Positions 2,140-52,231 of a DNA stretch of 60,593 bases are shown here, piece after piece. The notes beneath the pieces are model-generated. The model searched no databases and had not been told where the DNA came from. It saw only the letters and a program-made list of their open reading frames with translations. Every line of letters starts with the position of its first letter. The stretch's first letter is position 1. Position numbers and translations under genes: made by a program. The DNA comes from an uncultured Prevotellaceae bacterium (lineage in GTDB: Bacteria > Bacteroidota > Bacteroidia > Bacteroidales > UBA3663): the NCBI GenBank assembly GCA_964530595.1, contig CAZGZL010000001.1:1-60593 (forward strand). Reading direction: 5' to 3'.

Positions 2140-2267
2140 TTTACGTTATACGATCAAGGACGGTGTGACGTCATGACCGCTGAGGCTTGCCTAACGGGGT
2201 GCGACTCACCGAAATAGAACAGAGATATTATCAAGAAACCAGATATACAAATATAGATTTATTAGAA

Positions 2268-3032: not shown

Positions 3033-3047
3033 CAAAAGCATAACGCA

Positions 3048-3117: not shown

Positions 3118-3140
3118 CGTTTATTTTAGGCTTCTGAGCG

Positions 3141-4454: not shown

Positions 4455-4532
4455 ACAAACAAATAAATAATGATGTAGAGATAAAAAATATATACTCGTT
4501 GGTTGAATATACTGAATCGGTGTGGAGAGCGA

Positions 4533-6533: not shown

Positions 6534-6551
6534 GGTCTTTGCGTGAAGATA

Positions 6552-7901: not shown

Positions 7902-7987
7902 TTAGAATGGTTAGCTAACTTTGTTCCTGTCTTGAGATCTCCTCGTTTAGGTCGGTCGACGGAACGGGAGACTCAGACACTACGTTG

Positions 7988-7995
7988 CAAAGATA
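7988..7995 (-). promoter_or_regulatory. candidate Bacteroidota -7 box (TATCTTTG on minus strand)
   Basis: CAAAGATA on the plus strand equals TAnnTTTG on the minus strand. It lies 87 nt upstream of the ATG at 7901. Confidence 0.35.
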
Positions 7996-8129
7996 GCATA
8001 AAGTGTTGGCATCAACAAATTTATTGACTTTTTTCAAGAATTTCCTCGCTGCGGCTTCTCTCGTCGTCATGCTCTCTCTTGCGCCGTGTGCAGAGCCACT
8101 CCGAAAACCATATGCTCAGCAAGTGAGAT

Positions 8130-9443: not shown

Positions 9444-9497
9444 GAAGATTTTGTACCGTGAATGATGTAAATATCAAGTCGTCAAAGGGTGGCGCGC

Positions 9498-11849: not shown

Positions 11850-11929
11850 GGAATGAATAACTTTGGAGAACTTTTTAATGTTCCCGAACTATTTTATAAA
11901 CGGCAGAAAGTCTGTTTTATTGTCAATCC

Positions 11930-13267: not shown

Positions 13268-14271
13268 AACGTCATAGAGTTACCTTGTGACAAGTCGAGG
13301 CGATAGCAACGATAAGCTACGCCGCGTCCGCCGAAACCCTCTTTTTGAGCGACGAGTGTGGCGTTGAGGTACCTTCCGGCTTGCTCGTTTGAGGTTCCGA
13401 AGTCGAAGTATCGGATGTCGGGTTGCGCGCGGTAGTGTTCGATCAGAGAGAGATAGAGCAAGTCCATCACCCCGTCGGCTTTGCCCAATGCAGAGGCGTG
13501 AGGATACTGAATGTGCACCACTTGCGCCGTCTCGAAATAGAGGATTCCACCGGTCAATATGCGCCCTTGCTCTGTGGACTTATAGGCGCACGTGCAACGG
13601 ATCTGTTGCGGGAAGCGATCGCGCAGTAACTGTATTTCTGCCAACGAGTGTACCGGACAGGCGCTGTAACGCTGTTGCAGATTCTCTGTGACAATTTGCC
13701 AGAACTCTGTCAGCTCCGACACCTCCTCCAATACATAGCCGGCTTGCGACGCCCGTTTGAAGCCGCGTCGCCGCCGCGCCTCCACTTTGGGGGCGCAACA
13801 TTCCGGTGCACGTAAATCAAGTGTCGTTGCGATGTTGCAGACCTCGATTGTCGCGCCGAGCCGCCACAGTGCGTACTCATCCTCTTGCGCCGGGATGCGC
13901 TGATAGATGGTTGGAATAGGTTTATAATAAAGAACTTGAAATCCTGTTTGCCGCAAATACTCCACCAAGCGTTGCATCAGCTCCATCACCTCCACAATGC
14001 CACTGCGAGGCTGCAACAGCCAGCCTCCGTAGGTCAGTCCGCGGTGAGAATAGTAGACCTTCCCCTCTGACGCCTCCACCGCCTCGCATCCGGGCAAGAG
14101 CGCCGTGAGCGCACCTTGTTCGTCGAACGCCATTAGAGAATGATCTGCAAAACGGTCGGCGTGATAGTCCATGTAGGGACGCTGAAGCAGGAAGGTCGCG
14201 TTGACGGCGGTAGCGACAAAGGCGTCCCAAGTGGGAGCGTCCGCCGCTGTATATCGGCGCAGGGAGAGCAT
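13264..14271 (-). CDS. GNAT / FemAB-like acyltransferase
   Basis: 335-aa soluble protein with a two-lobed GNAT-like layout and no TM segment. It sits between sugar-nucleotide isomerase and flippase genes. The family call is from overall resemblance, not a sharp motif. Confidence 0.65.
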   Translation of the reverse strand: MLSLRRYTAADAPTWDAFVATAVNATFLLQRPYMDYHADRFADHSLMAFDEQGALTALLPGCEAVEASEGKVYYSHRGLTYGGWLLQPRSGIVEVMELMQRLVEYLRQTGFQVLYYKPIPTIYQRIPAQEDEYALWRLGATIEVCNIATTLDLRAPECCAPKVEARRRRGFKRASQAGYVLEEVSELTEFWQIVTENLQQRYSACPVHSLAEIQLLRDRFPQQIRCTCAYKSTEQGRILTGGILYFETAQVVHIQYPHASALGKADGVMDLLYLSLIEHYRAQPDIRYFDFGTSNEQAGRYLNATLVAQKEGFGGRGVAYRCYRLDLSQGNSMTL

Positions 14272-14295
14272 ACGGCAGTGTTTTAGCGTAAAAGG

Positions 14296-15252
14296 TTATT
14301 GTTGTGGGGCGGATAGCGAGTTGCGGAATTCGGCTAATTGCTGATAGTCGCAAATATAATCTTTCGGATCATAACTTTCGGAGGTCAAGACAAGCGCCAC
14401 CGCTGCCGACGAGAAATCGTGCAGACGACACCAGATGCCCGGCGGAATCAGTAACCCCATGAAGGGGCGGTCTAAACGCACTGAGCGGTGTTCGTGCAGA
14501 TCGTCCAACTCGACCGTGAAGCTACTGCTGGCTGCCACTATAAATTGCCACGCCTGTTTGTGGGCGTGCTGTCCGCGATCGGTATCTGAGGGGATATCGT
14601 AGAGATAGAATACGCGGCGCAGAGCGAACGGTAGTATTTCGGGCGTGCCCTCTTCGATCGCCGTCAGATAGCCGCGACGCCGCTCTGTGAAGGCGGGTAG
14701 ACGGAACATGCGACAATCTGCCAACGTATAGGCTCCGGAGTGCTTTGGGAGCACTACTTCGGGCGCTGACGGAACCACTTCGTGGAATATCTGACACGGA
14801 TCGGCGGCGTTTTGTGCCACCTCTGCGCAGAATGTCTCGAAGTCCCAGAGATAATCCCCCTCGTCGTAGTGGGTAGATGAGAGCACTAAACCCAACGAAT
14901 TGGTCGAGAAGTTATCCAACGTGCGCCACGTCATTGGCGGCACATAGACGCCCTTATACGAGCGGCACAGATGAATCCTTCGCTCCTCCTTGCCGTCGTG
15001 TAACACCACATCAAAACTGCCGCTCAGTGCGACGATAAACTCCTCTTGGTGGCGAAAGGCGTGACTGCCGCGTAGCTCGCCGCCGGGGACGTCGTAAATC
15101 CAATAGGCGCGACGGATGCGGAAGGGAATATGATTCTCTCCCTCAATGAACGACAGATTCCCTCGTTCGTCCTCCACCTTCGGAAGGTTGATGAGGCGGA
15201 TCTCCCGTTCAGATTTTGGGGCAGATAGCTCAGATTGATTCATGGATGTCAT
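14296..15252 (-). CDS. tandem (two-domain) FdtA/WxcM-like sugar 3,4-ketoisomerase cupin protein
   Basis: There are two ~140-aa copies of the WxcM/FdtA cupin. Copy 1 reads LPKVEDERGNLSFIE...RGSHAFRHQEEFIVALSGSF. Copy 2 reads LPAFTERRRGYLTAIE...RGQHAHKQAWQFIVAASSSF. The canonical HAH is present only in copy 2. Confidence 0.85.
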   Translation of the reverse strand: MTSMNQSELSAPKSEREIRLINLPKVEDERGNLSFIEGENHIPFRIRRAYWIYDVPGGELRGSHAFRHQEEFIVALSGSFDVVLHDGKEERRIHLCRSYKGVYVPPMTWRTLDNFSTNSLGLVLSSTHYDEGDYLWDFETFCAEVAQNAADPCQIFHEVVPSAPEVVLPKHSGAYTLADCRMFRLPAFTERRRGYLTAIEEGTPEILPFALRRVFYLYDIPSDTDRGQHAHKQAWQFIVAASSSFTVELDDLHEHRSVRLDRPFMGLLIPPGIWCRLHDFSSAAVALVLTSESYDPKDYICDYQQLAEFRNSLSAPQQ

Positions 15253-23737: not shown

Positions 23738-25093
23738 TTAGCCGATCTTCACCCCTTCGAACATCAGCGATGGGATGAATCCGGTGGCTGTCTGTCGTTG
23801 CTCACTGCCCACCTCGACGAGATGCTTCCATAGGTCGATGAGGTGTCCCGTCATGTTCATTTCGCTGACGGCAGCCACCGCTTCGCCCTGTTCGTAGAGT
23901 TGCCCCTCGATACCAAAGGAATAGTCGCCCGTCACCTCGTTGTAGTTGCCTCCGTTGAAGCCGGTGAGGAGCAATACGCGCGGTTGGCTGCGTAGCATCT
24001 CCTGCATAGAGCGGGCACCGGGAGTCATGCAGAGTACGGTGGGACCGCTGAAAGTGGGCGTCGTCTGGAGCTTGTGCGCGTAATAAGTATCGAAAAAATA
24101 GGTGCAGAGCACTCCGTCGCGGAAGATGTCGCGCGTCGCCGTGGCAACCCCTTCGAAGTCGAAGAGGCAGGCTCCCTGTGCACCGTAACGCTGTGGCTCG
24201 TCGGTCAGGGTGAGTAATGGCGAGGCGACCACCTCGCCCAAGCGGTCGGCAAGGAATGAACGCTTCTGATAGAGGGCGGCACCGAAAAGTACGTCGATCA
24301 GCGGATCGAGGAGCTTACCCACGACGCGCGGCTCAATGACGATGGTGTAATGTCCTGCCTCGATGCGATGTTGCCCTACTTTGCGCTCTGCACGCCGATA
24401 AGCACTGTCCGCCAAGCTCTGCGGCAGTTCCTCCATCAGCTGATGTAGCTCGCCGTAGCCCACCGCGGTGCGGTGCTCGTAGTCCGACGGACGGCAATCG
24501 CCCTCGCCCTGTAGGTTGACCGAGGCAACCAACGAACAGATGCCGGCGCGGCTTTCGCCGTGAAAGCCTTGGCTGTCCGAGAGGTATTGCCAACCGATGC
24601 GGTCTTGGAGCGCCGTGTCGAGGGTGATGATGCGCGGATCGTTCACGGTGAGCGCTTGGGCAGTCTGCAACGCCAAATCGCGCTTGGCATCTGCCGTGGT
24701 GCTGAGGATAGAGGTGTCGTAGTTGCCCAAGTCGGGAACACTATCCGCTGTTGTGTTGCGATAGTAACGTGCAGGATCCGGCAAGGTGCGACACAGGTCG
24801 GGCGACAAGCAACGGGTGATCGAGACCCCCTGACGGATCAGCTGTTCTATTTCCAAGGCGTCTAAGCGGTTGGTGGAGTAGGTGCCGTAGCGTCCATCGA
24901 CAAAGAGACGCAACGTCATGCCGACGCCGGTGCTCTGTTGCAAGGTGTCGACGTGCCGATTGTGGGTGTCGATGTTAAAGTGCTCTATGTAGTTCATCTC
25001 GGCGCGTGCGGCTGTGCAGCCTTGACGGAGTGCATACTCCACAACGTGGTCGGTCAGCGTGATGTATCGGGAGGCTTGTTCGGGTGTCAACAT
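23738..25093 (-). CDS. TldD/PmbA-family protein, PmbA/TldE type (no HExxxH)
   Basis: 451 aa from the ATG at 25093, with family-typical blocks (GMTLRLFVDGRYGTYSTN; FDFEGVAT; GGNYNEVTGDYSFGIEGQLYEQGE). I found no HExxxH zinc motif anywhere in the translation. The promoter box at 25126-25133 rules out the longer track ORF. Confidence 0.8.
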   Translation of the reverse strand: MLTPEQASRYITLTDHVVEYALRQGCTAARAEMNYIEHFNIDTHNRHVDTLQQSTGVGMTLRLFVDGRYGTYSTNRLDALEIEQLIRQGVSITRCLSPDLCRTLPDPARYYRNTTADSVPDLGNYDTSILSTTADAKRDLALQTAQALTVNDPRIITLDTALQDRIGWQYLSDSQGFHGESRAGICSLVASVNLQGEGDCRPSDYEHRTAVGYGELHQLMEELPQSLADSAYRRAERKVGQHRIEAGHYTIVIEPRVVGKLLDPLIDVLFGAALYQKRSFLADRLGEVVASPLLTLTDEPQRYGAQGACLFDFEGVATATRDIFRDGVLCTYFFDTYYAHKLQTTPTFSGPTVLCMTPGARSMQEMLRSQPRVLLLTGFNGGNYNEVTGDYSFGIEGQLYEQGEAVAAVSEMNMTGHLIDLWKHLVEVGSEQRQTATGFIPSLMFEGVKIG

Positions 25094-25125
25094 ATATAAT
25101 AATGTGTAGTTTTCCGTTGATGCCG

Positions 25126-25133
25126 CAAAGATA
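25126..25133 (-). promoter_or_regulatory. candidate -7 box for PmbA/TldE gene (TATCTTTG on minus strand)
   Basis: CAAAGATA on the plus strand lies 33 nt upstream of the ATG at 25093. Confidence 0.4.
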
Positions 25134-25393
25134 GTACATTCCTGCGATTCCGTTCCCTTTTGCAGCGGGAAACAGCCGGATGGAGGGGATAAGTTGTCGC
25201 GTTCCGCACGTCGCTCAAAGAAAAAGATCTTGGACTTGGATTCATTGACTGAAATGGTTATATTAAAAATCAAAAGTCAACGAATCTTGAATATTTGATT
25301 GCAATTAGCTTGAATTTATGCAAAAATGCAAACATTTTGATTTTTCGCGATAGATTTTTAGGGCAAAATAGTACGTCGTTTTAGGTTCTTTTA

Positions 25394-25401
25394 TATATTT
25401 G
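25394..25401 (+). promoter_or_regulatory. candidate -7 box for the SusC/SusD operon (TATATTTG)
   Basis: TAnnTTTG match in a 467-bp AT-rich divergent intergenic region. It predicts a 5' leader of about 150 nt before the susC ATG at 25561. Confidence 0.4.
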
Positions 25402-25560
25402 CAACGTGTAATTAAGAAAAACAGCTCGATTAAGTACAAAATGAAAGCAATCCCAGCCGAAACTGAGCTCTTTAGAGCGTCAAATCGTCATCCGTAGATT
25501 GCTTTCGGATTTCAGAACAAAAACAGCTTGAATGTCCCGAATAATATTATTATTTATAAT

Positions 25561-28500
25561 ATGAGAAGAAGAATCTACTTGTTATTTCTGTCGTTGTGTG
25601 CCTTCACGGTAATGGTGGCACAGAATACGATCAATGTATCCGGCGTGGTACGCGACGATCAGGGCGAAGGCATCATCGGTGCCACCGTCAGCGTCGTAGC
25701 GCAGGGAGTAAGTAAAGGCGCTATCACGGACGGCTCCGGGCAGTTCTTGTTGATGGATGTCCAACCCGCCGCACTGCTGCGCGTCTCTTATGTGGGCATG
25801 GAAAGTGTGGAAGTGAAAGCTAAACCGCGTTTGGAGATCGTCCTGAAGTCAAATGACGAACTTTTGGACGAAGTGATCGTCACCGCCTTCGGTACCGCTA
25901 AGAAATCTTCGTTTACCGGTTCCGCCGCCGTTGTGGGTAGCGCTAAGATCGAGCAGAAACAGCTGACAAACGTCATGCAGAGCTTGGTCGGCGAGGTTCC
26001 CGGTCTGCAGATCAATCCTTCGACGGCACCCGGTTCTACGCAGTCTATGACGATCCGAGGAACGGGAAGTATCTTCGCTGACTCCGACCCGTTGATTATT
26101 TTGGACGGTATGCCTTACGATGGTGGCTGGAATAACATCAATCCTCAGGATGTAGAATCAATTACTGTGTTGAAAGATGCAGCTTCGAACGCCCTCTATG
26201 GTGCGCGTGGCGCCAATGGTGTGATCATCATCACCACCAAGAAAGGCGACGCTGGTCGCGCTGTGGTGACGGTGGACGCCAAGTGGGGCGTGAACCAACG
26301 CTCTGTGCCGGACTACGACCGCGTTACCAATGTGGGCGAATACTACGAAATGTACTACAAGGCGCTTTATAATTATTATACGAGTAACGGAAACTCCGCT
26401 TCGACAGCGCACCGCCGCGCAAACGAGACTATGTTCGCTTCCAGCTCGGAAGGCGGCTTGGGCTACAATGTTTATAGCGTCCCGGACAATGAATACTTGA
26501 TCGGTACTAATGGAAAGTTGAATCCCAATGCAACGCTCGGTCGCCGTGTCTATCGCGATGGCAAGACCTATCTTTTGACGCCGGATGATTGGAGTGACGA
26601 GACCTATCGCACCGGTTCGCGTGAGGAATACAATGTAAATATCTCCGGCGGCAATAGTCAGTCTACCGTATATGGCTCGTTCGGCTATTTGAACGACGAA
26701 GGTATCGTGGCAGCCTCTTCGTATGAGCGTTACAGCGCTCGCTTGCGTGCTTCTTATCAAGTGAAGAAGTGGCTCCAGTTTGGCGGCAATATGAGCTATA
26801 TTCGTTCGAATACCAATCAGGTAGCTGCTGACGGTAGCTCTGATAGCGACGGTCAAACGATCGACAGCAATGTCTTCTCGTTCGCTGCGAACATGGCGCC
26901 GATTTATCCCCTTTATGTGCGCGATGGCAACGGAAACATCGTTACCGATAGCAACGGCAAGGTATATGATTGGGGTAACGGCAAATACAACGATTTGGAT
27001 GCTTCCGGACAGATGCTTGCACGTCCTTATGGCGCAAACACCAACTTGATTAACTCTCTCTACATCGAATCGAATAAACATATCGACAACTCATTGAATG
27101 CCGATGGTTATGTGGATGTCTCATTCCTTAAAGACTTCAAATTCACCTTCAAGGCCGGTACTTCGGTGTGGGAAAGTAAGTACACATATCAGAACAACCC
27201 TTACTACGGCTATTACAGCGACGGCGGCGGTGTTTTGACCAAACAGCAGAACCGGACAACGACTCTGAACATGCAGGAGTTGTTAAACTGGAGCCATAGT
27301 TACGGCAAGAACAATCTGACGGCGTTGATCGGTCATGAGAATTATACTTATCGTTACGAGACGCTGCAAGCTTCCAAGCGCGGAGCAACAGACTACTTCG
27401 GTAATCAAGAACTGAACGGTTATTTGACCTATCCCGATGCTCCCTCTTCTTACGCAACCGACTACAATACGGAGGGCTACTTTTTCCGCGCAACTTACGA
27501 TTATGACACCCGCTACTTTGCGCAGGCTTCATTCCGTCGCGATGCTTCCTCTCGCTTCCATCCGGACAACCGTTGGGGTAATTTCTGGTCGCTCGGCGGT
27601 GCTTGGCTGTTGAGCAAGGAAGATTGGTTCAATATTGCCAACGTGAACTCCTTGAAGTTGAAGGCCTCTTACGGAGAGCAGGGAAATGATAAAATCGGTA
27701 ACTACCGTTACATGGATCTCTACAAAATCAGTAACGTGGACGGACAGCTCTCTCTGACCCTCTATCAGAAAGGCAACAAAGACATCACTTGGGAGACCGG
27801 TCGCAACTTCAACGTCGGCGTCGAGTGGGAGATGTACCGCGGTCGCTTGAGTGGTGGCGTAGACTACTATAACCGCACCACCAATGATATGCTCTTGTGG
27901 TTTAGCACGCCGAGCTCTTTGGGTTACGATGGCTATTACAAGAACGTCGGCGATATGCGAAACCGTGGTGTCGAAGTCACATTGGCGGGGACACCCATCC
28001 GCACACGTCATATCGACTGGAGTTTGAATTTTAACTTGACTTACAACAATCAGTCCGTTACTTATTTGCCCGACGAGAACAAAACCACAATGGTGGACGG
28101 TTATAAGGGCTTCATCAATGGTACCTATTATTATGTAGGTGAAGATTTGCCGCTCAATAGCTGGTACATTGCTAAGTATGCCGGCGTTTCTGCTGATGGA
28201 CGTTCGCAGTGGTATTACACCGACAGCGAGGGCAAACAGCAGGTAACGACCAATTATGAAAACGCCACTAAATATATCATCAAAGCCGAGCAGCCTGTCT
28301 ACGGTGGATTCGGTTCGGCGTTGAATCTCTATGGCGTGGACATCAACGTTCAATTTACCTACCAGTTGGGCGGAAAAGGTCTTGACACAGAGTATGCGCG
28401 CTTGATGACCAATCCCGTGGTCAGCCAGACCGGTTATGCCATCCACAAAGATATGTTGAACGCTTGGTCAGCCGAAAATACAGACTCAAATATTCCTCGT

Positions 28501-28770
28501 TGGCAATTCGGGGACGAGAATGCCGGTGCTATCTCAGATCGCTTCTTGATCAAGAATAGTTATTTAGCTTTGCAGAATGTACAGGTCGGCTATACGTTGC
28601 CGCAACGCCTTTATAGCGCAATCGGCATCAGCAAGCTGCGTCTTTACGCCAGCGGCGACAATATTTATTTGTGGTCGAAGCGCAAAGGCTACGACCCGCG
28701 TATCTCAGCCGGCTATGGCGTTTACTCGCCGATGCGTACCATTTCGGGCGGTATCAACATTCAGTTCTAA
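25561..28770 (+). CDS. SusC/RagA-family TonB-dependent outer-membrane transporter
   Basis: A signal peptide is followed by a CarboxypepD_reg-like domain (INVSGVVRDDQGEGIIGATVSV), a TonB box/plug (DEVIVTAFGTAKKSSFTGS, ITVLKDAASNALYGARGANGVIIITTK) and a ~800-aa barrel ending in ...GGINIQF. There is no N-terminal STN/anti-sigma signalling domain. Confidence 0.95.
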   Translation: MRRRIYLLFLSLCAFTVMVAQNTINVSGVVRDDQGEGIIGATVSVVAQGVSKGAITDGSGQFLLMDVQPAALLRVSYVGMESVEVKAKPRLEIVLKSNDELLDEVIVTAFGTAKKSSFTGSAAVVGSAKIEQKQLTNVMQSLVGEVPGLQINPSTAPGSTQSMTIRGTGSIFADSDPLIILDGMPYDGGWNNINPQDVESITVLKDAASNALYGARGANGVIIITTKKGDAGRAVVTVDAKWGVNQRSVPDYDRVTNVGEYYEMYYKALYNYYTSNGNSASTAHRRANETMFASSSEGGLGYNVYSVPDNEYLIGTNGKLNPNATLGRRVYRDGKTYLLTPDDWSDETYRTGSREEYNVNISGGNSQSTVYGSFGYLNDEGIVAASSYERYSARLRASYQVKKWLQFGGNMSYIRSNTNQVAADGSSDSDGQTIDSNVFSFAANMAPIYPLYVRDGNGNIVTDSNGKVYDWGNGKYNDLDASGQMLARPYGANTNLINSLYIESNKHIDNSLNADGYVDVSFLKDFKFTFKAGTSVWESKYTYQNNPYYGYYSDGGGVLTKQQNRTTTLNMQELLNWSHSYGKNNLTALIGHENYTYRYETLQASKRGATDYFGNQELNGYLTYPDAPSSYATDYNTEGYFFRATYDYDTRYFAQASFRRDASSRFHPDNRWGNFWSLGGAWLLSKEDWFNIANVNSLKLKASYGEQGNDKIGNYRYMDLYKISNVDGQLSLTLYQKGNKDITWETGRNFNVGVEWEMYRGRLSGGVDYYNRTTNDMLLWFSTPSSLGYDGYYKNVGDMRNRGVEVTLAGTPIRTRHIDWSLNFNLTYNNQSVTYLPDENKTTMVDGYKGFINGTYYYVGEDLPLNSWYIAKYAGVSADGRSQWYYTDSEGKQQVTTNYENATKYIIKAEQPVYGGFGSALNLYGVDINVQFTYQLGGKGLDTEYARLMTNPVVSQTGYAIHKDMLNAWSAENTDSNIPRWQFGDENAGAISDRFLIKNSYLALQNVQVGYTLPQRLYSAIGISKLRLYASGDNIYLWSKRKGYDPRISAGYGVYSPMRTISGGINIQF

Positions 28771-28787
28771 CAATCATATAGGAAACA

Positions 28788-30539
28788 ATGAAAAAGCAAT
28801 TATATAAGACATTCGCATTTGTTCTGATGACTACTGGCTCGTTGACTGCTTGTATCGACGAGACGTTGCCGGAATCAGGCTATTTGGCTTACGAACAGAT
28901 TGAAGGTTTGACGTCTACGCAAGCCGGCTACGCTCGCGCCATTGCCGGTTATCTCGGACAGCCAGAATCTTGCTACGACACAGAATATGACATCGGCTAT
29001 CCCGGTCTCGGTCTGATTCGTGACCTTTATTGCGAAGACTTGAGCACTAATTCTCTTGGCTACGAGTATTTCTACTATTGGGCTGCCAATAGCTACCTCG
29101 GCTCTGATTATCCGACCGCATTCCTACCGTGGAAGTATTATTATAAGTGGATCGCCAACACGTCGAATATTTTGCGCGGAACGGAGAACGATGACAACAA
29201 AGCATACTTTGGTATCGCACATTTCTACCGTGCATGGGCTTATTTCGATTTAGCACGTCTGTATGAGTATCGTAACACCGGCATTGCTTCTCTCGATCAG
29301 GCAGCCGCTGCCAACGGTATCTATGGGTTGACGGTGCCGATTCTTTCGGATGAACCGACCGACGCGGAGGCTTTCAATACCCCGCGTGTGAAATATTACA
29401 CGATGTATCGCTTCCTACTCGACGAATTAGAGGCAGCGGAGCGGGAATTGGCTGACTACACTCGTTCAGCTAAAAATATGCCGAACATTGCCGTAGTCTA
29501 TGGTTTGAAGGCGCGTGTCTATTTGGAAATGGCAACTCGCTACGAATTTGCTCCTGAAGACTTGACCGAGACGCTTCAGTCCGGCGTCGATTTGGGTTTC
29601 ACTACCCAAGAGGAGGCGTATGCTTTGGCAGCCGAATATGCACGCAAAGCCATCAACGAGAGCGGTGCTACGCCGCTCAGCGAGTCTGAATGGTATGGTG
29701 GCAGCAATTACACCGATGGCTTCAACAACGTCAACACCAACGCTTGGATGTTGGGTATCATCATCAACAAGGAGCTCTTGAGTGCCTCCTCATGGCGTAA
29801 CTTTATCGGGTACATTTCTCCCGAACAATGCTTTGGTGTAGCGGGCATTTCCTACAACGAAGACGCTAAAAAATACGTCAACACGTACGGAGCGCAGCGT
29901 TTGATCAGCACCCGACTCTATGACAAGATCAGTGACAAAGACTGGCGTAAACAGACGTGGATCGCTCCTGAAGACGCGGGTTTGGCGCCCGGCACGAAAT
30001 ATAAGACGATTGCCGACGATGATCACTTTGTCCAGATTCCTGCCTACAGCGGATTGAAATTCCGCCCCAAGGAGGGCAATAAGACCGACTTCAGTGTCGG
30101 CGCAGCAGCAGACTATCCGTTGATGCGTGTCGAGGAGATGTACTTCATCGAAGCCGAAGCTAAGGCGGGCAGTGAAGGCGTCGAGGCGGGTATGGCTGTC
30201 CTTTCGAGCTTCTTGAACACGTATCGTTATCGTGACAACGGCTACACGACTACCGCTTCGAATATCGAGCAATTCCGTGAGGAGTTGATGGTTCAGAAAC
30301 GTATCGAGTTCTGGGGCGAGGGTTTGATATTCTGGGACTACAAGCGTCTCTTGATGAACGTGACGCGCGGCTATAGTGGTACTAATTTCCCCACATACTA
30401 CCGTTTGAACTCGGTTGTTGGATATTATGTAGCGCCGTGGTTCAATGCCTTCATCCCGCAAAGCGAGTATGAGAAAAACTCTGCGATGTTGCCCAATCCC
30501 GATCCGTCGGCTACCATTTCTGCATGGGAAGAGAATTGA
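28788..30539 (+). CDS. SusD/RagB-family nutrient-binding outer-membrane lipoprotein
   Basis: Lipobox LTAC followed by IDETL. It has TPR-like helical SusD hallmarks (AHFYRAWAYFDLARLY; GLKARVYLEM; RVEEMYFIEAEA; QKRIEFWGEGLIFWDYKR) and starts 17 nt after susC. Confidence 0.95.
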   Translation: MKKQLYKTFAFVLMTTGSLTACIDETLPESGYLAYEQIEGLTSTQAGYARAIAGYLGQPESCYDTEYDIGYPGLGLIRDLYCEDLSTNSLGYEYFYYWAANSYLGSDYPTAFLPWKYYYKWIANTSNILRGTENDDNKAYFGIAHFYRAWAYFDLARLYEYRNTGIASLDQAAAANGIYGLTVPILSDEPTDAEAFNTPRVKYYTMYRFLLDELEAAERELADYTRSAKNMPNIAVVYGLKARVYLEMATRYEFAPEDLTETLQSGVDLGFTTQEEAYALAAEYARKAINESGATPLSESEWYGGSNYTDGFNNVNTNAWMLGIIINKELLSASSWRNFIGYISPEQCFGVAGISYNEDAKKYVNTYGAQRLISTRLYDKISDKDWRKQTWIAPEDAGLAPGTKYKTIADDDHFVQIPAYSGLKFRPKEGNKTDFSVGAAADYPLMRVEEMYFIEAEAKAGSEGVEAGMAVLSSFLNTYRYRDNGYTTTASNIEQFREELMVQKRIEFWGEGLIFWDYKRLLMNVTRGYSGTNFPTYYRLNSVVGYYVAPWFNAFIPQSEYEKNSAMLPNPDPSATISAWEEN

Positions 30540-30588
30540 TCACATCGTCTTCGTTCAAACACATTATTATAATACATAAAAGAAAGTT

Positions 30589-31503
30589 ATGAAAACAAGA
30601 GATATGATTTGGGGGCTTGGCGGCGTGTTGGGCGCGTGCTTGCTCTGCACCGCCTGCGATGATGACGACAACGCATGGCAACCCGGCCCGGTGGTCGGTG
30701 ACGGTCATCAGAACATCGTCTATTTCGTGGGTTCTGCCCCTTCGACCACTGAATTGAGAACAGATGTTACGACAGACTATGCCATCACAGTGGCTCGTAT
30801 GGATTCCACAGAGGCGATCTCTGTGCCTCTCGTCGCACAAGGTAGCGATGCTTTCGAAGTCCCGGAGACCATCGAATTTCCCGCAGGCGTAGGGACGACA
30901 CAGTTCAACGTCCACTTCAAAGGAGCCCCCAAAAGTGGTACCTTCAGCTTGGCGTTGAGCATCGAAGACATTCGTTATAACAATCCCTACACTTCCCTCA
31001 CGACACAGCTCGAATTTTCGCAGGATGTAGCCAAATGGGTGCTTGTCGCCTCTAACGTACGCTTCTCGGAATACTATGGACAGATGGCCTCTTTCGAATG
31101 CGATCTCTATCAGCGCGAGGGAGAAAACATCTATCGTTTTGTTGACTTCGGTGAGGGTTATGATCTCACATTCGTGGCAGATTCGATTCCAGCTACCGAC
31201 GAGAATGCATATTTCGGTAATTACATTCATCCGACGGGTGGTTACACCGGATCTTTCTATGGAAGCGATGCATGGTACTTTGCCTCAGAACCGGACGCTG
31301 CGTATAATATAAAGTTGCGCAATGCCGAAGGTCGCTCCATTGACTATTCTGTTTTGTATCTGAATACCTCGTACACAACCATTAGTTTCGATACTAAATC
31401 CGGTTGGATCAATGGCTATTTCTATCAGTACGATGCAGATTATGTTTTCGAGACCTCTTATTATGCTTTCCTTTATTTCGAATGGGATGACCCTGCAGAG
31501 TAA
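30589..31503 (+). CDS. surface lipoprotein of unknown function (N-terminal Ig-like region plus aromatic-rich C-terminal domain, copy A)
   Basis: Signal peptide with LCTAC followed by DDDDN (acidic surface-export-like signal). The C-terminal ~155 aa is paralogous to ORF 33749-34354. I recognise no named family. Confidence 0.75.
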   Translation: MKTRDMIWGLGGVLGACLLCTACDDDDNAWQPGPVVGDGHQNIVYFVGSAPSTTELRTDVTTDYAITVARMDSTEAISVPLVAQGSDAFEVPETIEFPAGVGTTQFNVHFKGAPKSGTFSLALSIEDIRYNNPYTSLTTQLEFSQDVAKWVLVASNVRFSEYYGQMASFECDLYQREGENIYRFVDFGEGYDLTFVADSIPATDENAYFGNYIHPTGGYTGSFYGSDAWYFASEPDAAYNIKLRNAEGRSIDYSVLYLNTSYTTISFDTKSGWINGYFYQYDADYVFETSYYAFLYFEWDDPAE

Positions 31504-31528
31504 TAGCAAATCATGAATTAAAGTAACT

Positions 31529-33061
31529 ATGGAAAGAATATCAAACATTCGCACCTACGCTGCCGTCGGATTCATGGCGGTCTCAGCGTTGACACTCTGC
31601 ACGGCGTGTGACAATGACGATGATGTTGTCAAGGAGCAATTAGCCTCGCCGGAGATCACATTGGTCGATTCCACCGCCACAAGTCTGACTTTCTCGTGGA
31701 GCTCGGTAGATCTGGCATACCAATACGAATATGAACTTCGTGATAGTCGCGAGGTGCTGGTCGAAGGCAATTTGACTGACAAAAACAGCGTAACGATCGA
31801 GGGATTGAACCCTGAAACCGAATATACACTCAGTGTGGTAGCTTACGCACAAGATGTTCGTTACTACTTAGCTTCGGAGGCTGCTACCCTCAGTGCCAAG
31901 ACCGATGTCGCACCGATTGTCGCTTCCGAACTCTGGCGTGCCGAAGGAACCTTCACGAGTACCGATCTCGGTGACTCTTGGACGGCTACCCTCGTGGCAT
32001 ACGACGACAATCACTACGAATTGCTCTCTTGGTACGGCGTAGAAGGTTACAACTTACAATTCTACGTGACGGCAGACGGTGGGCTCGATTTGTCGAATTA
32101 CGAGAGCTCTTACGGCTACTATTACGTTCCCACGGGACGTAGCGATTACGAGCAAGCCGCACTCTACGTCGCTGACGGCTACTCCGGCTTTAGCGGTGAC
32201 GAGACGAAGGGAAATATCTATGTTTGGGATTACCTCGCAGCCGGTGGTTATGATCAGTTTACGTGGGGCACCACCAACGAACCTGAAACGCCCGGTGATA
32301 CCGATCGTACAGCCCTCTGGAGTGCTGATGGAACGTACACTTGTGCCGTTTTAGCCACGTCTTGGAAGGCTACACTCACTGCTTACAGCGACGGCAGCTA
32401 CACCCTCGCATCGTGGTTCGGCGTAGAAGGTTATGACTTCACTTTCTCCCTGACTGCCGATTCTGTATTGACCGCCAACTATTCGTTGGACGAGTTCCAA
32501 TATTATTGTGTGCCAACCGGTCGTACCGATTATCCGACAGCTTATCTCTACTTCGAGAACCAGTGCTCACGTTTTACAGGCGATGCAACGCAGGGCGTGT
32601 TCTTCCTCTATGACTATCTGACACAAGGAGGCTACGACACGTTTACTTGGAGTGCTTCGGCATCCTCGAACACCTCTTCATTGACTTTAGCCTCCCTTGT
32701 AGGTAGCTATTCAGAGCATACCACCGGCTATTGGAACGCCACATGCGACTATACGTGCGACGTAACCCTCGCCATCGAAGACGAAGCTACGCAGAGCGTT
32801 AGCCTCAACGGATTCTCCGGTTCAGCCACACCGTTGGTTGGTACAGTCGATTTGGAGGCACGCACCATCACCTTCGCGCCGAATCAGGATTTTGCCTCTT
32901 ACTATCTCTTCTCAGCTGAAGCAGATCAGTACACCTCTGTTATCGCCACGATTGCAGATGACGGCACCATCACGCTCAAAGATTGGGGCGCTTGGTATCC
33001 TTGGCAGGGCGTTTACTACACGTATGCCTATGGCATGGTTTCTGTCTTGACAAAACAATGA
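31529..33061 (+). CDS. surface lipoprotein of unknown function (FN3-like domain plus two tandem aromatic-rich repeats plus a third related domain)
   Basis: LCTAC followed by DNDDD. The FN3-like segment is PEITLVDSTATSLTFSWSSV...YEYEL...GLNPETEYTLSVVAY (aa ~40-125). Tandem ~113-aa repeats occupy aa 134-247 and 262-374. Confidence 0.75.
   Translation: MERISNIRTYAAVGFMAVSALTLCTACDNDDDVVKEQLASPEITLVDSTATSLTFSWSSVDLAYQYEYELRDSREVLVEGNLTDKNSVTIEGLNPETEYTLSVVAYAQDVRYYLASEAATLSAKTDVAPIVASELWRAEGTFTSTDLGDSWTATLVAYDDNHYELLSWYGVEGYNLQFYVTADGGLDLSNYESSYGYYYVPTGRSDYEQAALYVADGYSGFSGDETKGNIYVWDYLAAGGYDQFTWGTTNEPETPGDTDRTALWSADGTYTCAVLATSWKATLTAYSDGSYTLASWFGVEGYDFTFSLTADSVLTANYSLDEFQYYCVPTGRTDYPTAYLYFENQCSRFTGDATQGVFFLYDYLTQGGYDTFTWSASASSNTSSLTLASLVGSYSEHTTGYWNATCDYTCDVTLAIEDEATQSVSLNGFSGSATPLVGTVDLEARTITFAPNQDFASYYLFSAEADQYTSVIATIADDGTITLKDWGAWYPWQGVYYTYAYGMVSVLTKQ
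31928..32650 (+). repeat. intragenic tandem duplication encoding two ~113-aa domain copies
   Basis: Copy 1 (31928-32269) reads ELWRAEGTFTSTDLGDSWTATLVAYDDNHYELLSWYGVEGYNLQFYVTADG...YYYVPTGRSDYEQAALY...FSGDETKGNIYVWDYLAAGGYDQFTWG. Copy 2 (32312-32650) reads ALWSADGTYTCAVLATSWKATLTAYSDGSYTLASWFGVEGYDFTFSLTAD...YYCVPTGRTDYPTAYLY...FTGDATQGVFFLYDYLTQGGYDTFTW. Confidence 0.85.
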
Positions 33062-33068
33062 GAAAAAT

Positions 33069-33102
33069 TGAGTGAATGGTCTCCGATGAGATCATTCACT
33101 CA
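33069..33102 (+). terminator. rho-independent terminator ending the susC-susD-lipoprotein operon
   Basis: A 15-bp stem (TGAGTGAATGGTCTC / GAGATCATTCACTCA, one G-T pair) with loop CGAT is followed by TCCCTTTT. It begins 8 nt after the stop at 33061. Confidence 0.75.
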
Positions 33103-33257
33103 TCCCTTTTCGCCATAAAACACCCCTTTTCGCCTAACTATTATAACCACACCTTATAGAACTATTGAGATCCTAACTCTTGACTGAAAAAAGAAACATT
33201 TGTTGCTTCTGATTCGATCATTCTATATAAGTTTAACTCCTTAATATTACAGTAAAA

Positions 33258-33752
33258 ATGAGCAAGAAAATTCCGATTTTTTTGACCGCTCTACTCTTGT
33301 TGCTGTCGCCTGCACATCGGGCAGTTGCCGACACGGTAGAGAATCAGGTCTTGGTCGAATTTGCTTCGGGTGAAGTCATTACCTTCGCCATCGAACAAGC
33401 GCCCAAGATCACCTACACGGAACAAGACGTTACCGTGACGTATGCTGGGGACACCCTCACGTATGCGATGTCCGCCATCAAAAAACTCACCTTAGGTGAT
33501 GCTTCCGCCTCCGGTATCGAAGGCATTGTCTCGTCCCGTCCTTTGGGTACGATCACGTGTACCGATGGTGCCTTCCACTTCGCCGGATTCCCGCAAGGCA
33601 GTCTGGTGCGCCTTTTCAACCTGAACGGGCAGCTCGTACAGAGCTACACGCTCAACGGCGAGGAAACCAACGACGCCTCCATTTCGGCATTGTCTGCCGG
33701 CACTTATGTTTTAACAGTCAAGGGTATTACTTATAAATTCAACAAACGATGA
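33258..33752 (+). CDS. small secreted protein with T9SS type-A C-terminal sorting domain
   Basis: 164 aa: signal peptide, a ~75-aa N-terminal module and a CTD-like tail (GAFHFAGFPQGSLVRLFNLNGQLVQSYTLNGEE...LSAGTYVLTVKGITYKFNKR). Its stop overlaps the next start (ATGA at 33749-33752). Confidence 0.75.
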   Translation: MSKKIPIFLTALLLLLSPAHRAVADTVENQVLVEFASGEVITFAIEQAPKITYTEQDVTVTYAGDTLTYAMSAIKKLTLGDASASGIEGIVSSRPLGTITCTDGAFHFAGFPQGSLVRLFNLNGQLVQSYTLNGEETNDASISALSAGTYVLTVKGITYKFNKR

Positions 33753-34354
33753 AAAAAATATTTTCTGTATTGGCAGCTTGCCTGCTGACCATTGCCGCCT
33801 CCGCTCAAACCATGAACGTACACCTCAAAGACGGTAGCACAGTCTCTTATACCTCCACAGACGTTGATTACGTCGACTTCACTGCTGCCGATCCTACGGC
33901 ATTGGGTGCAGAGTGGAAATTGATCGCTTCCGATGTGCAGTTCACCGAGTATTATAATAGCCTTCCGGGCTTTACAGCCGACCTCTATTGTAACGCCGAT
34001 AGCACAGAATATTGCTTCCGTAACTTCGCTACGGGCTACAACCTCTACTTCACCGTGACTCCCGTCGAGGGCACTAACAGCTATTTAGGAAATTATATCT
34101 ATCCCGTAGGTGGCTCAACTTATGGAGACTATTCCTATTTCGGTCCAGATACGTGGAATAGTAGCTTCCCGCTGTATTGGCAGAATTGGGAGGGGCATTA
34201 TGCAGACGGTTCTGCTGTCTATACCAACACCACTTATACGACCATCAATTTCGATGATAAGTACGGTTGGTTGTGTCTCTATATACAATCTTATACAGAT
34301 GCCGGCGAATACGAGAAAGAGATTTGGGCTTATCTGCAATTTAGCTGGAAATAA
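33749..34354 (+). CDS. secreted protein of unknown function (aromatic-rich domain, copy B; paralog of the C-terminus of 30589-31503)
   Basis: 201 aa with a signal peptide (cleavage likely after ASA). Residues ~45-201 align along their whole length with copy A. Examples: EWKLIASDVQFTEYY vs KWVLVASNVRFSEYY; GNYIYPVGG vs GNYIHPTGG; YTNTTYTTINFDDKYGW vs YLNTSYTTISFDTKSGW. Confidence 0.75.
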   Translation: MKKIFSVLAACLLTIAASAQTMNVHLKDGSTVSYTSTDVDYVDFTAADPTALGAEWKLIASDVQFTEYYNSLPGFTADLYCNADSTEYCFRNFATGYNLYFTVTPVEGTNSYLGNYIYPVGGSTYGDYSYFGPDTWNSSFPLYWQNWEGHYADGSAVYTNTTYTTINFDDKYGWLCLYIQSYTDAGEYEKEIWAYLQFSWK

Positions 34355-34377
34355 TTGCGATTATCGCTTAAATAACA

Positions 34378-34418
34378 ATCACGGCTCGACTGCGAAACGT
34401 TTGCAGTCGAGCCGTGAT
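34378..34418. terminator. bidirectional terminator between convergent genes
   Basis: A perfect 16-bp stem (ATCACGGCTCGACTGC / GCAGTCGAGCCGTGAT) is followed by CTTTTTGTG on the plus strand and a T-rich stretch on the minus strand. It lies between the stops at 34354 and 34444. Confidence 0.75.
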
Positions 34419-34443
34419 CTTTTTGTGTCGATAGCGAAGCCTT

Positions 34444-36891
34444 TTATTGCACCACCACTTTGCGGCGATCAATGATGTAAATGCCGCGTGGCAACTGATA
34501 GCCTACGGGGGTATTCTGACGCTGCTGAACGCCGATCAGTCGTCCGGTCAGATCGTAGATTTCTACCTGATCCGAAGCATGGTCGATGCGAACATCCTCG
34601 ATGCCGGTAGCGGCAAGCACATTGACAGCTACTCGGTTTTGTACGCCTGCATTTATCGACGGCATTGCGTAGTTACCGCTCTTCAGATAAGAGACCTTGC
34701 CGTAGTATGTGGTCTGTGCATTCAGATTCTGCAATGTACCGGAGATGTAGATCGTATCGGTCGCTCCGGCAGCCACCTCGCATTCCTGTTCGAAGGTCAA
34801 CAACGCTGTTTGTGCCGTCGTCGTGCGGAAGAACTGAACACGGAATGTGCCGACATATCTGTCGCCGGTATTCTTCACCACGGCGGCAATGGTCAATTCC
34901 GTACCCAATTCGCGTGTAGATTCAGAAGTGATCCACGGCGTGCTCAAAAGCGTGAATGCAGCATTGGTGGTCAGATCTTCCTGCACCTCGAAGGTGGTGC
35001 GGCTGGTAGCGATCGTTACCATTGATGTGCTGACGTTCTGATGAGCATATTGCAAACTTGCGCCCCATGTTCCCGACATACTCAATGTGCAGTCGAAGGA
35101 GAGCTGCTTGGTCTCGCCCGCCTTCAGCGTTGTGGGAAGGCTCTGCGTGATCTTCTCGCTCACCTCGTCCGGATTGGTCAGTGCGAGGGCAAAGCTACCT
35201 ACCACCGTTTCTGTGCCGGTGTTGGTTACATCCACGGTGATTGTCGTGGCGGTATTAGCGCTCACTGTATTGTTCTCGAAGCTCCAGTTGGCTGCTGTCA
35301 GCGGCTGATCGGTGCTCTTGCTGATGGTAACGCTTGTGCCGCTCACCGTCATATCCAAATAGCTATGTGCCGAAGCCGTATAACGCAACGTCGCAATGCT
35401 GTCGTTGTCCGATGGGTGATAATAAGTATAAATACGATAGGAGCCTTCTGCCAAATCGGAGGGCAGGGTGATCTGCCCACTGATGTTCGAGCCAATGATG
35501 CTTGTTCCCGATGCAGCAATGGTCAGCGTACCCAACGGACACAATATGCGGTTGGCGTCGTCGGCTGGGTTCTGAGTCTCGGAATCGGTTGGCACAATCA
35601 TAGCGCCTACAGCACCGTTCACGGCGAACGGAGAGTAATTAAACAAGCTCTTCAATACCAAATTGACGCGACCGCCTAAAGTGGTCTTCTTGGTCGAGCT
35701 GGTGATGCTCTCGCCGGCAATGGGGGCGAAGTAGCGACCGTAATGCTGTTGCGGCGTTAGCTGCAACACGGCAGACTGTTCCGAACTGTAGCCGTTGGAT
35801 GCTGTCGCACCTGTGCCAACTCCCAACGGATTGAGAATGCAGACATCATAGTAGCCATTATATTGTCCCGACCAGCCCCAGTTGACGTGATAATAGCCTT
35901 CACTGCTATAGCCGTCCAAAATGAAAGCGTGTCCACCTGTCGAGGCAAGACCGGAGTAGAGGATCGGGCGATTCTCTTGGAGCTCGTTATAGAGCAGCGC
36001 GTTCCACTCATCGTAGCTATAGTAGCTGCGATACTGGAGCGTTGTCAGCTCATTGTAGCCGAAGTAGTCGATCAGCGCCTTCAGATAATAAGGAGCCGTC
36101 GAACCACTCTGATCAGCCGCATACGACATATTTAGTGCCACGCCGCAATGAAAACTCAGCTTAGCTACCTCATCGCGTTGTGCTTGGGTCTCGGAGCCGG
36201 TATATTGTTCCAACATCAGATCCCAATCGTAGGTCTGGTCGGCGAAGTTGACGCTGACGGTATTTCCGGCGGTGGTATAAGAATTGATGCCTTGACCGTG
36301 TTCCGGGTACTTGTGGTGGCGCATCACCTGTGCCAATGCTGTTGCCATGCAGCCCGTAGGATATTGATTGGGGCAACGGTTGCTGTACGGATCATTTTGA
36401 TCCCACTGAATATTATTCAGCGGCGCGATGGGGGCGTAGGAGGGCGCTTCAGCCGACAGTGCCGCTTCGGGGTGTGCCTCCACGTAGGTCACAGATTCAG
36501 CCAAGTGGGTCAGCCAGCTTTCCAAGTTGTCCGGTAGTGCCTCGTCCGAGAAAGTCTGGTCGTCGGAATAACCCAAGATCGGGCGCATCAAATCTGTGCC
36601 TGAGACGATGACGAAACCGCCCTCCTCACGATTGAAGATATAATACGGAGCGTCCGCCGTCGCGCGGGTTTCGCCCATCAGCCGACTGAGACGAACACTG
36701 TGAAATGGGGTGAGGCGGAATGCAGCGGCGCGTTGCTCCTTGCGTGACAAGAAGTTTTGTGCCAAGGTCTCAGCCTCGGAGGCACTGCGGGGCAGCGCTT
36801 CGGCGGTAGTGGCCATGCTGCCACCCACCAAGAGGAGTCCCAAGAGGTGCGTGCGGTGTTCCCGTAGAAATGTGTAGACGTTGTTTAGCAT
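34444..36891 (-). CDS. C10-family (streptopain/PrtT-like) cysteine peptidase with propeptide, Ig-like repeats and T9SS C-terminal domain
   Basis: Propeptide/inhibitor-like N-terminus (SEAETLAQNFLSRK...PYYIFNREEGGFVIVSGTDLMRPILGYSD). The catalytic Cys is in the context QYPTGCMATALAQVMRHHKYP and the catalytic His in STGGHAFILDGY, followed by NWGWSGQYNGYY. The C-terminal sorting domain reads VEIYDLTGRLIGVQ...LPRGIYIIDRRKVVVQ. I prefer the ATG at 36891 because the track start at 36918 (TTG) lies inside the promoter box. Confidence 0.88.
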   Translation of the reverse strand: MLNNVYTFLREHRTHLLGLLLVGGSMATTAEALPRSASEAETLAQNFLSRKEQRAAAFRLTPFHSVRLSRLMGETRATADAPYYIFNREEGGFVIVSGTDLMRPILGYSDDQTFSDEALPDNLESWLTHLAESVTYVEAHPEAALSAEAPSYAPIAPLNNIQWDQNDPYSNRCPNQYPTGCMATALAQVMRHHKYPEHGQGINSYTTAGNTVSVNFADQTYDWDLMLEQYTGSETQAQRDEVAKLSFHCGVALNMSYAADQSGSTAPYYLKALIDYFGYNELTTLQYRSYYSYDEWNALLYNELQENRPILYSGLASTGGHAFILDGYSSEGYYHVNWGWSGQYNGYYDVCILNPLGVGTGATASNGYSSEQSAVLQLTPQQHYGRYFAPIAGESITSSTKKTTLGGRVNLVLKSLFNYSPFAVNGAVGAMIVPTDSETQNPADDANRILCPLGTLTIAASGTSIIGSNISGQITLPSDLAEGSYRIYTYYHPSDNDSIATLRYTASAHSYLDMTVSGTSVTISKSTDQPLTAANWSFENNTVSANTATTITVDVTNTGTETVVGSFALALTNPDEVSEKITQSLPTTLKAGETKQLSFDCTLSMSGTWGASLQYAHQNVSTSMVTIATSRTTFEVQEDLTTNAAFTLLSTPWITSESTRELGTELTIAAVVKNTGDRYVGTFRVQFFRTTTAQTALLTFEQECEVAAGATDTIYISGTLQNLNAQTTYYGKVSYLKSGNYAMPSINAGVQNRVAVNVLAATGIEDVRIDHASDQVEIYDLTGRLIGVQQRQNTPVGYQLPRGIYIIDRRKVVVQ

Positions 36892-36915
36892 ATACAAATT
36901 TGTAGATAGTTTGCG

Positions 36916-36923
36916 CAAATATA
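36916..36923 (-). promoter_or_regulatory. candidate -7 box for the C10 peptidase gene (TATATTTG on minus strand)
   Basis: CAAATATA on the plus strand lies 25 nt upstream of the ATG at 36891. The extended match TATATTTGCGC is shared with the promoters at 39621 and 39726. Confidence 0.4.
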
Positions 36924-52096: not shown

Positions 52097-52150
52097 TGCC
52101 GTAGGAGGCTTTTTGTCGTAGGACTCTTTTGTAACTACGTCAAAATGACC

Positions 52151-52158
52151 TATCTTTG
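52151..52158 (+). promoter_or_regulatory. candidate -7 box (TATCTTTG) upstream of the GH3-family gene
   Basis: TAnnTTTG match 74 nt upstream of the ATG at 52232. It lies inside the longer track ORF, which favours the 52232 start. Confidence 0.3.
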
Positions 52159-52231
52159 CCGCATTCTGAGCAGAGATCTCTCTGCTACACATTTTCGGAA
52201 TATAATTATTAAATCATCACATATCTTTTCA

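Follow-up and report, generated by a model that had tools for sequence, protein, structure and literature searches.

The window analysed here, a stretch of 60,593 nucleotides from an uncultured Prevotellaceae bacterium (contig CAZGZL010000001.1 of assembly GCA_964530595.1), carries between 25.3 and 36.9 kb a locus of three transcription units, two on the plus strand and one on the minus strand, built around a SusC/SusD pair. On balance, we take the locus to represent a widespread, uncharacterised family of SusCD outer-membrane import systems of Bacteroidales whose substrate is most likely protein-derived, comprising oligopeptides and possibly glycopeptides. At the level of the family, the sequence data are strong evidence for a SusCD system that is associated with peptidases, is free of carbohydrate-active enzymes (CAZymes) and most likely serves protein-derived substrates. 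SusCD systems are treated almost wholly as glycan importers, and the protein-related exceptions are few: RagAB, Bt2261-64 (substrate unknown) and ButCD. The gene order proposed in the initial annotation, which was made from the sequence alone (susC, susD, two lipoproteins, a mini-protein carried by the type IX secretion system (T9SS), a secreted paralogue and a convergent C10 peptidase gene), was recovered in full, with every gene at its proposed position:

25561–28770, plus strand: SusC/RagA-type TonB-dependent transporter with an N-terminal extension (TIGR04056, TIGR04057, Pfam)
28788–30539, plus strand: SusD/RagB-type lid lipoprotein (PF14322, PF07980, lipobox TAC-IDE)
30589–31503, plus strand: surface lipoprotein L304, Ig-like at the N-terminus and followed by an all-β domain X (lipobox, AF2 model)
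31529–33061, plus strand: surface lipoprotein L510, with fn3, two X-type repeats and a C-terminal domain (lipobox cysteine and acidic run CDNDDD, Pfam fn3)
33258–33752, plus strand: T164, a secreted mini-protein that ends in a type A sorting domain of the T9SS (TIGR04183, PF18962)
33749–34354, plus strand: S201, a secreted stand-alone domain X (SPI-type signal peptide, identity to L304)
34444–36891, minus strand: C10 cysteine peptidase of the streptopain/interpain type, with an I69 prodomain, a CARDB/Ig-like region and a probable T9SS C-terminal domain (Pfam)

Related loci were collected with a profile built from 25 SusD sequences, run against a single genome of each species, which gave 80 loci with flanks of up to 10 kb; conservation of the module was read from tblastn and open reading frame (ORF) maps of these loci. 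The census was centred on SusD because word-indexed protein searches returned too few L304 homologues (two with the single sequence, 12 with a 42-sequence profile). The loci span Prevotellaceae (Segatella, Hoylesella, Hallella and Prevotella), Muribaculaceae, Bacteroidaceae, Tannerellaceae and Alistipes, and the nearest SusD among the species representatives, 74% identical, is encoded in the metagenome-assembled genome (MAG) of an uncultured Prevotellaceae bacterium. Prevotellaceae, Muribaculaceae, Bacteroidaceae and Tannerellaceae all have members with the four-gene core susC–susD–lipoprotein–lipoprotein. In 60 of the 72 loci whose sequence extends far enough, susD is followed immediately by a homologue of L304; in 35 of 59 another gene of the X superfamily comes next, and some relatives carry extra X-domain paralogues downstream, comparable to S201 of the window. 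The contexts of the module are unrelated, with one copy located in a conjugative transposon and others among housekeeping genes. A Pfam census of 132 flank genes (two upstream and one downstream per locus) gave housekeeping families only, scattered among the loci; neither a regulator nor a CAZyme recurred. Among 76 unlabelled same-strand downstream ORFs, Peptidase_M64 was the sole Pfam family with more than two members; GH115 and sulfatase were found only once each.

A C10 catalytic domain is located in the flanks of 12 of the 80 loci. The strongest single argument for a link between peptidase and transporter comes from gene fusion: in four species (L033, L048, L059 and L087) C10 forms the C-terminal part of an L510-type lipoprotein. 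In Segatella copri HDD05 (L048), for which the genome is complete, one ORF of 579 residues contains lipobox, fn3, X and Peptidase_C10 (E = 9e-50). In L046, L056, L064, L067, L072 and L078, C10 is the next gene of the operon on the same strand, and most of these in-operon proteins have a prodomain and a T9SS-like tail. In Hoylesella shahii (L070), C10 lies 3′ of an L304 homologue in a second module. A Muribaculaceae MAG (L049) encodes an 834-residue protein with I69, C10, CARDB and a C-terminal domain, convergent with an X-family lipoprotein gene, so that both the layout and the protein architecture of the window are repeated.

Clusters of the metallopeptidases M64 and M6 were found by all-against-all clustering. 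M64 or M64-like proteins are present in 10 loci and M6 (immune inhibitor A type) in nine, mostly directly 5′ of susC; the HEXXH motif is kept in all M6 and in five long M64 proteins. At least one of C10, M64(-like) and M6 occurs in 26 of the 80 loci, and in 17 of 38 when only loci with full flanks are counted. The 27 peptidase genes counted in 0.79 Mb of non-module flank lie close to the module, at a median distance of 97 bp and in 20 cases within 500 bp, and 25 share its strand. Random placement in flanks of about 5 kb would put few peptidase genes this near to the module. In a neighbour-joining tree of SusD, the C10-linked loci are located in at least five separate places and the M6 and M64 loci in further places; the C10 gene is variously fused, in-operon, divergent or convergent. 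Because peptidase-linked loci are scattered over the tree in this way, the link appears to have arisen, or to have been rearranged, repeatedly.

The peptidase genes are arranged in several ways. M64, M6 and C10 all surround one module in L046 and L056; the order in L056 (1923–15582) is M64 (1923–3164), M6 (4675–6309), susC, susD, two X-family lipoproteins and C10 (14137–15582). L072 (15670–16650) and L078 (11591–12580) encode T9SS-tailed proteins of 326–329 residues with an SPI signal, and in each a short C10 gene without prodomain comes next. Since these T9SS-tailed proteins carry the C-terminal domain of L510, the same domains are found both lipid-anchored and T9SS-anchored. The M64-like lipoproteins of L039, L061, L070, L076 and L077 (273–363 residues) are encoded by the second gene after susD, the usual slot of the L510 homologue, and their match to the Peptidase_M64 profile stops after its first two thirds. 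By their sequences, these short proteins may descend from a peptidase and serve in binding, without catalytic activity. L107 (132–14558) has a susCD pair of lower similarity, its SusD being about 30% identical, flanked by three C10 genes (2877–4730, 9929–12469 and 12711–14558), with genes for an Omp28-family lipoprotein and a DUF6029 protein upstream.

The SusC of the window scores 733 bits with TIGR04056 (cutoff 368) and 62.5 bits with the TIGR04057 signature (cutoff 46.2). Pfam identifies CarboxypepD_reg, Plug and barrel; as the initial annotation had held, the STN domain (PF07660) gave no Pfam match, and the N-terminus consists of CarboxypepD_reg only. Because PF07660 is not matched, SusC is assigned to the predicted non-signalling subclass, like RagA. 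Among its solved relatives RagA is the best match (E = 3.7e-102), with the dextran SusC next (E = 1.5e-99). SusD, encoded after a gap of 17 bp, scores 41.4 bits with PF14322 and 38.9 bits with PF07980, and its family returns 2398 matches at E ≤ 1e-20.

An acidic run after the lipobox cysteine is the surface-export signal of Bacteroidota. L304 and L510, encoded after susD, are both lipoproteins with such a predicted signal. In L304 the run (CDDDDN) follows Cys23, a residue conserved without exception in 42 homologues. Modelled with AF2 (pLDDT 84.8), L304 consists of an Ig-like N-terminal domain and an all-β C-terminal domain, and Foldseek matched only Ig/PapD-like folds in the PDB, via the N-terminal domain. 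We use the name domain X for the all-β domain common to L304, S201 and the L510 repeats. By profile comparison, the core of the L510 repeats and domain X of L304/S201 are homologous (hhalign probability 97%, E = 2e-11, 45 aligned columns). S201 is 39% identical to residues 148–299 of L304, its C-terminal half (E = 2e-24), and has an SPI-type signal, which agrees with its first description as a secreted paralogue of the lipoprotein domain. The AF2 model of S201 has a pLDDT of 78.5 overall and above 90 over the domain; against the PDB it gave nothing better than E = 0.11. Lipocalin- and avidin-like fold matches to domain X were weak and below significance. The fold searches with these models lend no support to a carbohydrate-binding module or to a protease-inhibitor fold in domain X. 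The idea that S201 inhibits the C10 peptidase was dropped, as no staphostatin-like inhibitor was among the fold matches.

T164 had been described as a T9SS cargo mini-protein, and its C-terminal domain indeed scores 28.5 bits with TIGR04183 (cutoff 23) and E = 1.6e-5 with PF18962. The stop codon of T164 overlaps the start codon of S201 at 33749–33752 (ATGA), and this overlap suggests that the two are translationally coupled. No homologue of T164 was found in any retrieved locus at E ≤ 1e-3.

The window C10 peptidase matches PF01640 with 212.8 bits and the I69 prodomain (PF13734) with 82.2 bits, followed by CARDB. The catalytic cysteine (TGCMATA) and histidine (GGHAFILDG) are kept, and both align to streptopain (170 bits, E = 7e-49); the match to interpain A has E = 2e-45. 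In its I69 prodomain, C10 catalytic domain and Cys–His dyad the protein agrees with streptopain (SpeB) and interpain A; it differs from them by a long CARDB/Ig-like region towards the C-terminus, together with a probable T9SS sorting domain. The assignment of the peptidase as T9SS cargo is weaker than the initial annotation had it. The usual motifs (IYDLTGR and GIYII..RKVVV) are recognised by eye, whereas the TIGR04183 score of 17.9 bits is below the cutoff of 23; the C-terminus is a probable sorting domain. A PorZ-like T9SS component with an N-terminal β-propeller domain is encoded at 9498–11849 (minus strand) of the same window, and because PorZ is present, the organism is predicted to have a type IX secretion system.

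RagAB of Porphyromonas gingivalis (PDB 6SLI and related entries) takes up peptides produced by gingipains and is encoded by an operon of just two genes, ragA and ragB (10.1101/755678). The window locus resembles RagAB in having a SusC/SusD pair without STN, the N-terminal extension and no CAZyme or regulator in the operon. Surface-anchored T9SS cysteine endopeptidases are known partners of RagAB and the proposed partners here. Endopeptidase partnership of this kind is found at the family level in the 26 of 80 loci described above; in the window it consists of adjacency to the convergent C10 only. Unlike in RagAB, two conserved accessory surface lipoproteins follow susD in the family. The partners also differ, being gingipains (C25) encoded elsewhere for RagAB and C10, M6 and M64, often in cis or fused, for the window family. 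RagA is the closest solved relative but barely ahead of the dextran SusC, and SusD has no detectable similarity specific to RagB, its search giving no RagB chain at E ≤ 0.01. Judged from the sequences, the likeness to RagAB would be functional and not one of orthology. The initial annotation had called the system analogous to RagA/RagB but architecturally different.

Bt2261-64 of Bacteroides thetaiotaomicron combines SusCD with two extra lipoproteins and has an oligopeptide ligand in the structure (PMC7782687). The window resembles Bt2261-2264 (PDB 5FQ6-8) in having SusC, SusD, two extra lipoproteins and no glycosidase. Bt2264 is the most distant of nine solved SusC matches at E ≤ 1e-10 (E = 1.6e-49). 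Sequence searches with L304 and L510 gave no Bt2261 or Bt2262 chain at E ≤ 10, and no 5FQ entry was among the best 50 fold matches; the architecture appears to be analogous and the lipoproteins not homologous to L304/L510. The susCD loci of B. fragilis that encode metallopeptidases and no CAZymes, ButCD and three more, have been proposed to act on polypeptides and to transport peptides (PMC11467351). ButC is more distant (E = 4e-53), and the ButCD locus has a ZnMc peptidase and is without X-domain lipoproteins. With the glycan utilisomes (levan, dextran) the family shares the order susC, susD, binding lipoprotein, enzyme lipoprotein, and in S. copri and relatives the fourth gene encodes a surface lipoprotein bearing a catalytic domain, as in those systems. 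Unlike in the glycan utilisomes, this catalytic domain is a C10 peptidase and not a glycoside hydrolase, and there is no hybrid two-component or SusR-type regulator. By analogy, the locus would work like RagAB, Bt2261-64 and ButCD without being an orthologue of any of them.

The analysis establishes which domains and signals the proteins carry, how far the module is conserved, and that it is tied to peptidases statistically and, by fusion, physically. Complex formation, the substrate, the transport step and the use of the window C10 are inferred, in the following scheme. A cell-surface endopeptidase would cut proteins into oligopeptides. In the window this would be the neighbouring T9SS-anchored C10, and in other genomes a C10 fused to an L510 homologue, an in-operon C10 or an M6/M64 metallopeptidase. 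L304 and L510, with their Ig/fn3 modules and domain X, would sit at the SusCD core in the manner of the accessory surface proteins of glycan utilisomes and capture or position the substrate. The SusD lid would then shut over the peptide, and SusC would import it using TonB energy by a pedal-bin mechanism. T164, the T9SS-anchored mini-protein, and S201, the free X domain, may be extra accessory components. The locus shares with ragAB the lack of STN and of a regulator of its own, and its expression is presumably constitutive or globally controlled. Beyond this scheme we tentatively consider a "proteolytic utilisome", a possible but doubtful elaboration that would be widespread in gut and oral Bacteroidales and in which the SusCD core and the two X lipoproteins would dock a surface peptidase (C10, M6 or M64; fused, lipid-anchored or T9SS-anchored) and channel its peptides into the transporter.

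Several observations weigh against import of protein-derived substrates, or against a part for the window C10 in it. About two thirds of the family loci have no peptidase in the retrieved flanks, and five of the ten M64 matches are short lipoproteins without HEXXH. In the reverse test, on C10-centred metagenome loci with relatives of the window C10, susCD was located upstream in only five of 80 and the association was not significant; one of the five, L103, has the order susC–susD–lipoprotein–C10–C10, and L107, described above, is another. C10 in general thus appears not to be tied to susCD, and the transporter family would be the side that recruits peptidases. The similarity of the window SusC to RagA is no better than that to the glycan (dextran) SusC, and the SusD search returned no RagB chain at the threshold given above. 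The searches with the L304 and S201 models gave domain X no structural relative that would hint at a ligand, and no docking domain common to the lipoproteins and the C10 tail or T164 was detected. In the window, a strong hairpin sets off the C10 gene, which forms a convergent unit of its own. Among relatives with the four-gene core on long contigs and SusD 52–60% identical (L008, L010, L018, L082 and L093–L098), none has an adjacent C10; in L082 an M64 gene is located 5′ of the module in its place.

Contigs identical to the window (L006) show the same arrangement of module and C10, and the contigs of L001 and L013 (SusD 74–76% identical) are too short to show presence or absence of C10. The closest relative of the window C10 is 42% identical and lies on truncated contigs; no close relative was found. 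The check suggested at the outset, co-occurrence across related genomes, therefore has a divided outcome: the core is conserved and peptidases are recurrent, but C10 is not adjacent in the closest relatives with long contigs. The proteolytic-import reading of the initial annotation is likewise supported at the family level, where peptidases are the sole recurrent accessories and C10 is fused in four cases, but the link of the window C10 is not established. Coupling of the window C10 to the window module is plausible but unproven; the family pattern and the parallel in L049 favour it.

Some of these points would suit a glycan transporter without linked hydrolases. The locus would then take up oligosaccharides released by hydrolases encoded elsewhere, with the C10 gene adjacent by chance. 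Linked CAZymes are missing from many susCD pairs, the closest relatives lack an adjacent C10, the window C10 is a convergent unit of its own, and the solved dextran SusC scores nearly equal to RagA. In addition, a subclade of the family (L012, L020 and L023) is located near pectin-related genes and has no lipoproteins. Such a transporter is nevertheless unlikely, given that the only recurrent accessories are peptidases that abut the module tightly, that C10 is fused to the lipoprotein in four species, that the 76 downstream ORFs gave just one GH115 and one sulfatase, and that L049 independently shows an X-domain gene convergent with C10. A system for glycosylated host proteins or their glycopeptides, such as those of mucin or secretory IgA, would accommodate the peptidases, which would cut the backbone while SusCD recognises the glycan part. 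Each of the families C10, M64 and M6 includes characterised enzymes that cut host proteins, immunoglobulins among them, and all three appear in PMC4936053, where Ormerod et al. list them as immune-related peptidases of Muribaculaceae, without a susCD link. Glycan binding is usual for SusD proteins, and the fn3/Ig-rich lipoproteins are laid out like surface glycan-binding proteins. Against this, glycopeptide-directed polysaccharide utilisation loci (PULs) normally have glycosidases, sulfatases or other CAZymes, of which none is recurrent here, and the fold searches showed nothing in domain X like a known carbohydrate-binding module. We regard this system as rather unlikely.

A non-nutritional role, in the import or processing of a specific protein or as an apparatus for surface-protein maturation or immune evasion, has a precedent in ButCD, a conserved susCD locus with a ZnMc peptidase whose known cargo is a protein toxin, the bacteriocin-like ubiquitin (PMC11467351). 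A conjugative transposon harbours one member of the family, as is often the case for fitness or competition factors. The core gene order, however, is kept across four families with varied peptidases, which fits a generic substrate class, and toxin or immunity genes are not recurrent in the flanks; we consider such a role improbable. Import of protein-derived substrates by the family is the reading that we prefer.

The susC–L510 genes form the first transcription unit, T164 followed by S201 the second, and the C10 gene the third. The elements that bound them are as follows:

25394–25401, plus strand: candidate Bacteroidota −7 promoter box TATATTTG, read from the sequence, 160 bp 5′ of susC
33069–33102, plus strand: terminator-like hairpin at the end of the susC–L510 unit, a 15-pair stem with a T-rich tail
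34378–34418, no strand assigned: hairpin of 19 pairs between the convergent S201 and C10 genes

The promoter proposed at 25394 is present as a −7 box, but a search for the bipartite Bacteroides promoter found no −33 TTTG at canonical spacing upstream of susC. Because of this, the promoter at TATATTTG is weakly supported on its own. A terminator-like hairpin was found at the proposed position, 33069–33102. The hairpin at 34378–34418 is likely a bidirectional terminator; it lies between the second unit and the oppositely oriented C10 gene, a separate convergent transcription unit. An Rfam scan of 25.0–37.4 kb gave no match to a leader RNA. As the initial annotation had noted, there is no glycoside hydrolase (GH), polysaccharide lyase (PL) or carbohydrate esterase (CE) in 25.3–36.9 kb, and no regulator of the hybrid two-component (HTCS), extracytoplasmic function (ECF) sigma/anti-sigma or SusR type; on both counts the locus falls outside the strict definition of a PUL. 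The nearest glycoside hydrolases (GH2 and GH43) are more than 10 kb away, past housekeeping genes. The locus is flanked by a TldD/PmbA gene and PNPase. The divergent TldD/PmbA metallopeptidase gene (23738–25273, minus strand) was considered as part of the system and rejected, since the pairing is kept only in same-species contigs (L005). At 52145–53932 (plus strand) the window encodes a 595-residue GH3 protein in the Gretchen Hagen 3 sense (acyl-acid amido synthetase type), not a glycoside hydrolase, between PLD-like and HAD hydrolase genes.

Other genes were noted beside the module in related genomes. In L008 and L009 (1–21746) the module (6797–13850; SusD 55% identical) is located inside a conjugative transposon, with TraM, DUF4138, a DNA methylase, NikA-like and HTH proteins and two tyrosine integrases as neighbours. 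Because of this copy, the import module may be horizontally mobile. A 714-residue TPR–HisKA–HATPase sensor kinase is encoded near five family loci (L019, L021, L031, L088 and L091), in L031 (12193–14337) directly 3′ of the L510 homologue, and is a possible regulator for part of the family. In Segatella copri HDD05 (L048) a reverse-transcriptase gene (5276–6538), judged from its sequence to be of the group II intron type, lies directly 5′ of susC; RVT_1 is present in two flank ORFs of the census.

The general idea of a peptidase-linked SusCD system is already known from RagAB, Bt2261-64, ButCD and the SusD groups of Prevotella. A family defined by X-domain lipoproteins, the fusion of C10 to a lipoprotein, the joint use of C10, M6 and M64 and the breadth across families appear uncharacterised. 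We found no published description of X-domain lipoproteins, of the C10 fusion or of the C10/M6/M64 trio, and the groups of Accetto and Avgustin (2015) were not compared. As cited in PMC9866204 and PMC5993710, that work describes six SusD groups in Prevotella that include peptidases.

If the proposed function is correct, protein foraging by abundant gut Prevotellaceae and Muribaculaceae would become directly testable, and the S. copri locus, in the complete genome of a cultured strain, offers a practical entry point. Peptidases would take the place that glycosidases hold in glycan systems, and in S. copri the peptidase would be part of the accessory lipoprotein itself. Commensal C10, M6 and M64 peptidases would be recast as enzymes of nutrient acquisition and not only as immune-evasion factors. 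If the more tentative proteolytic utilisome also holds, commensals could feed on secreted host proteins, for example immunoglobulin A; since C10, M6 and M64 are usually read as immune-evasion factors, this would be a possible route for feeding on host protein.

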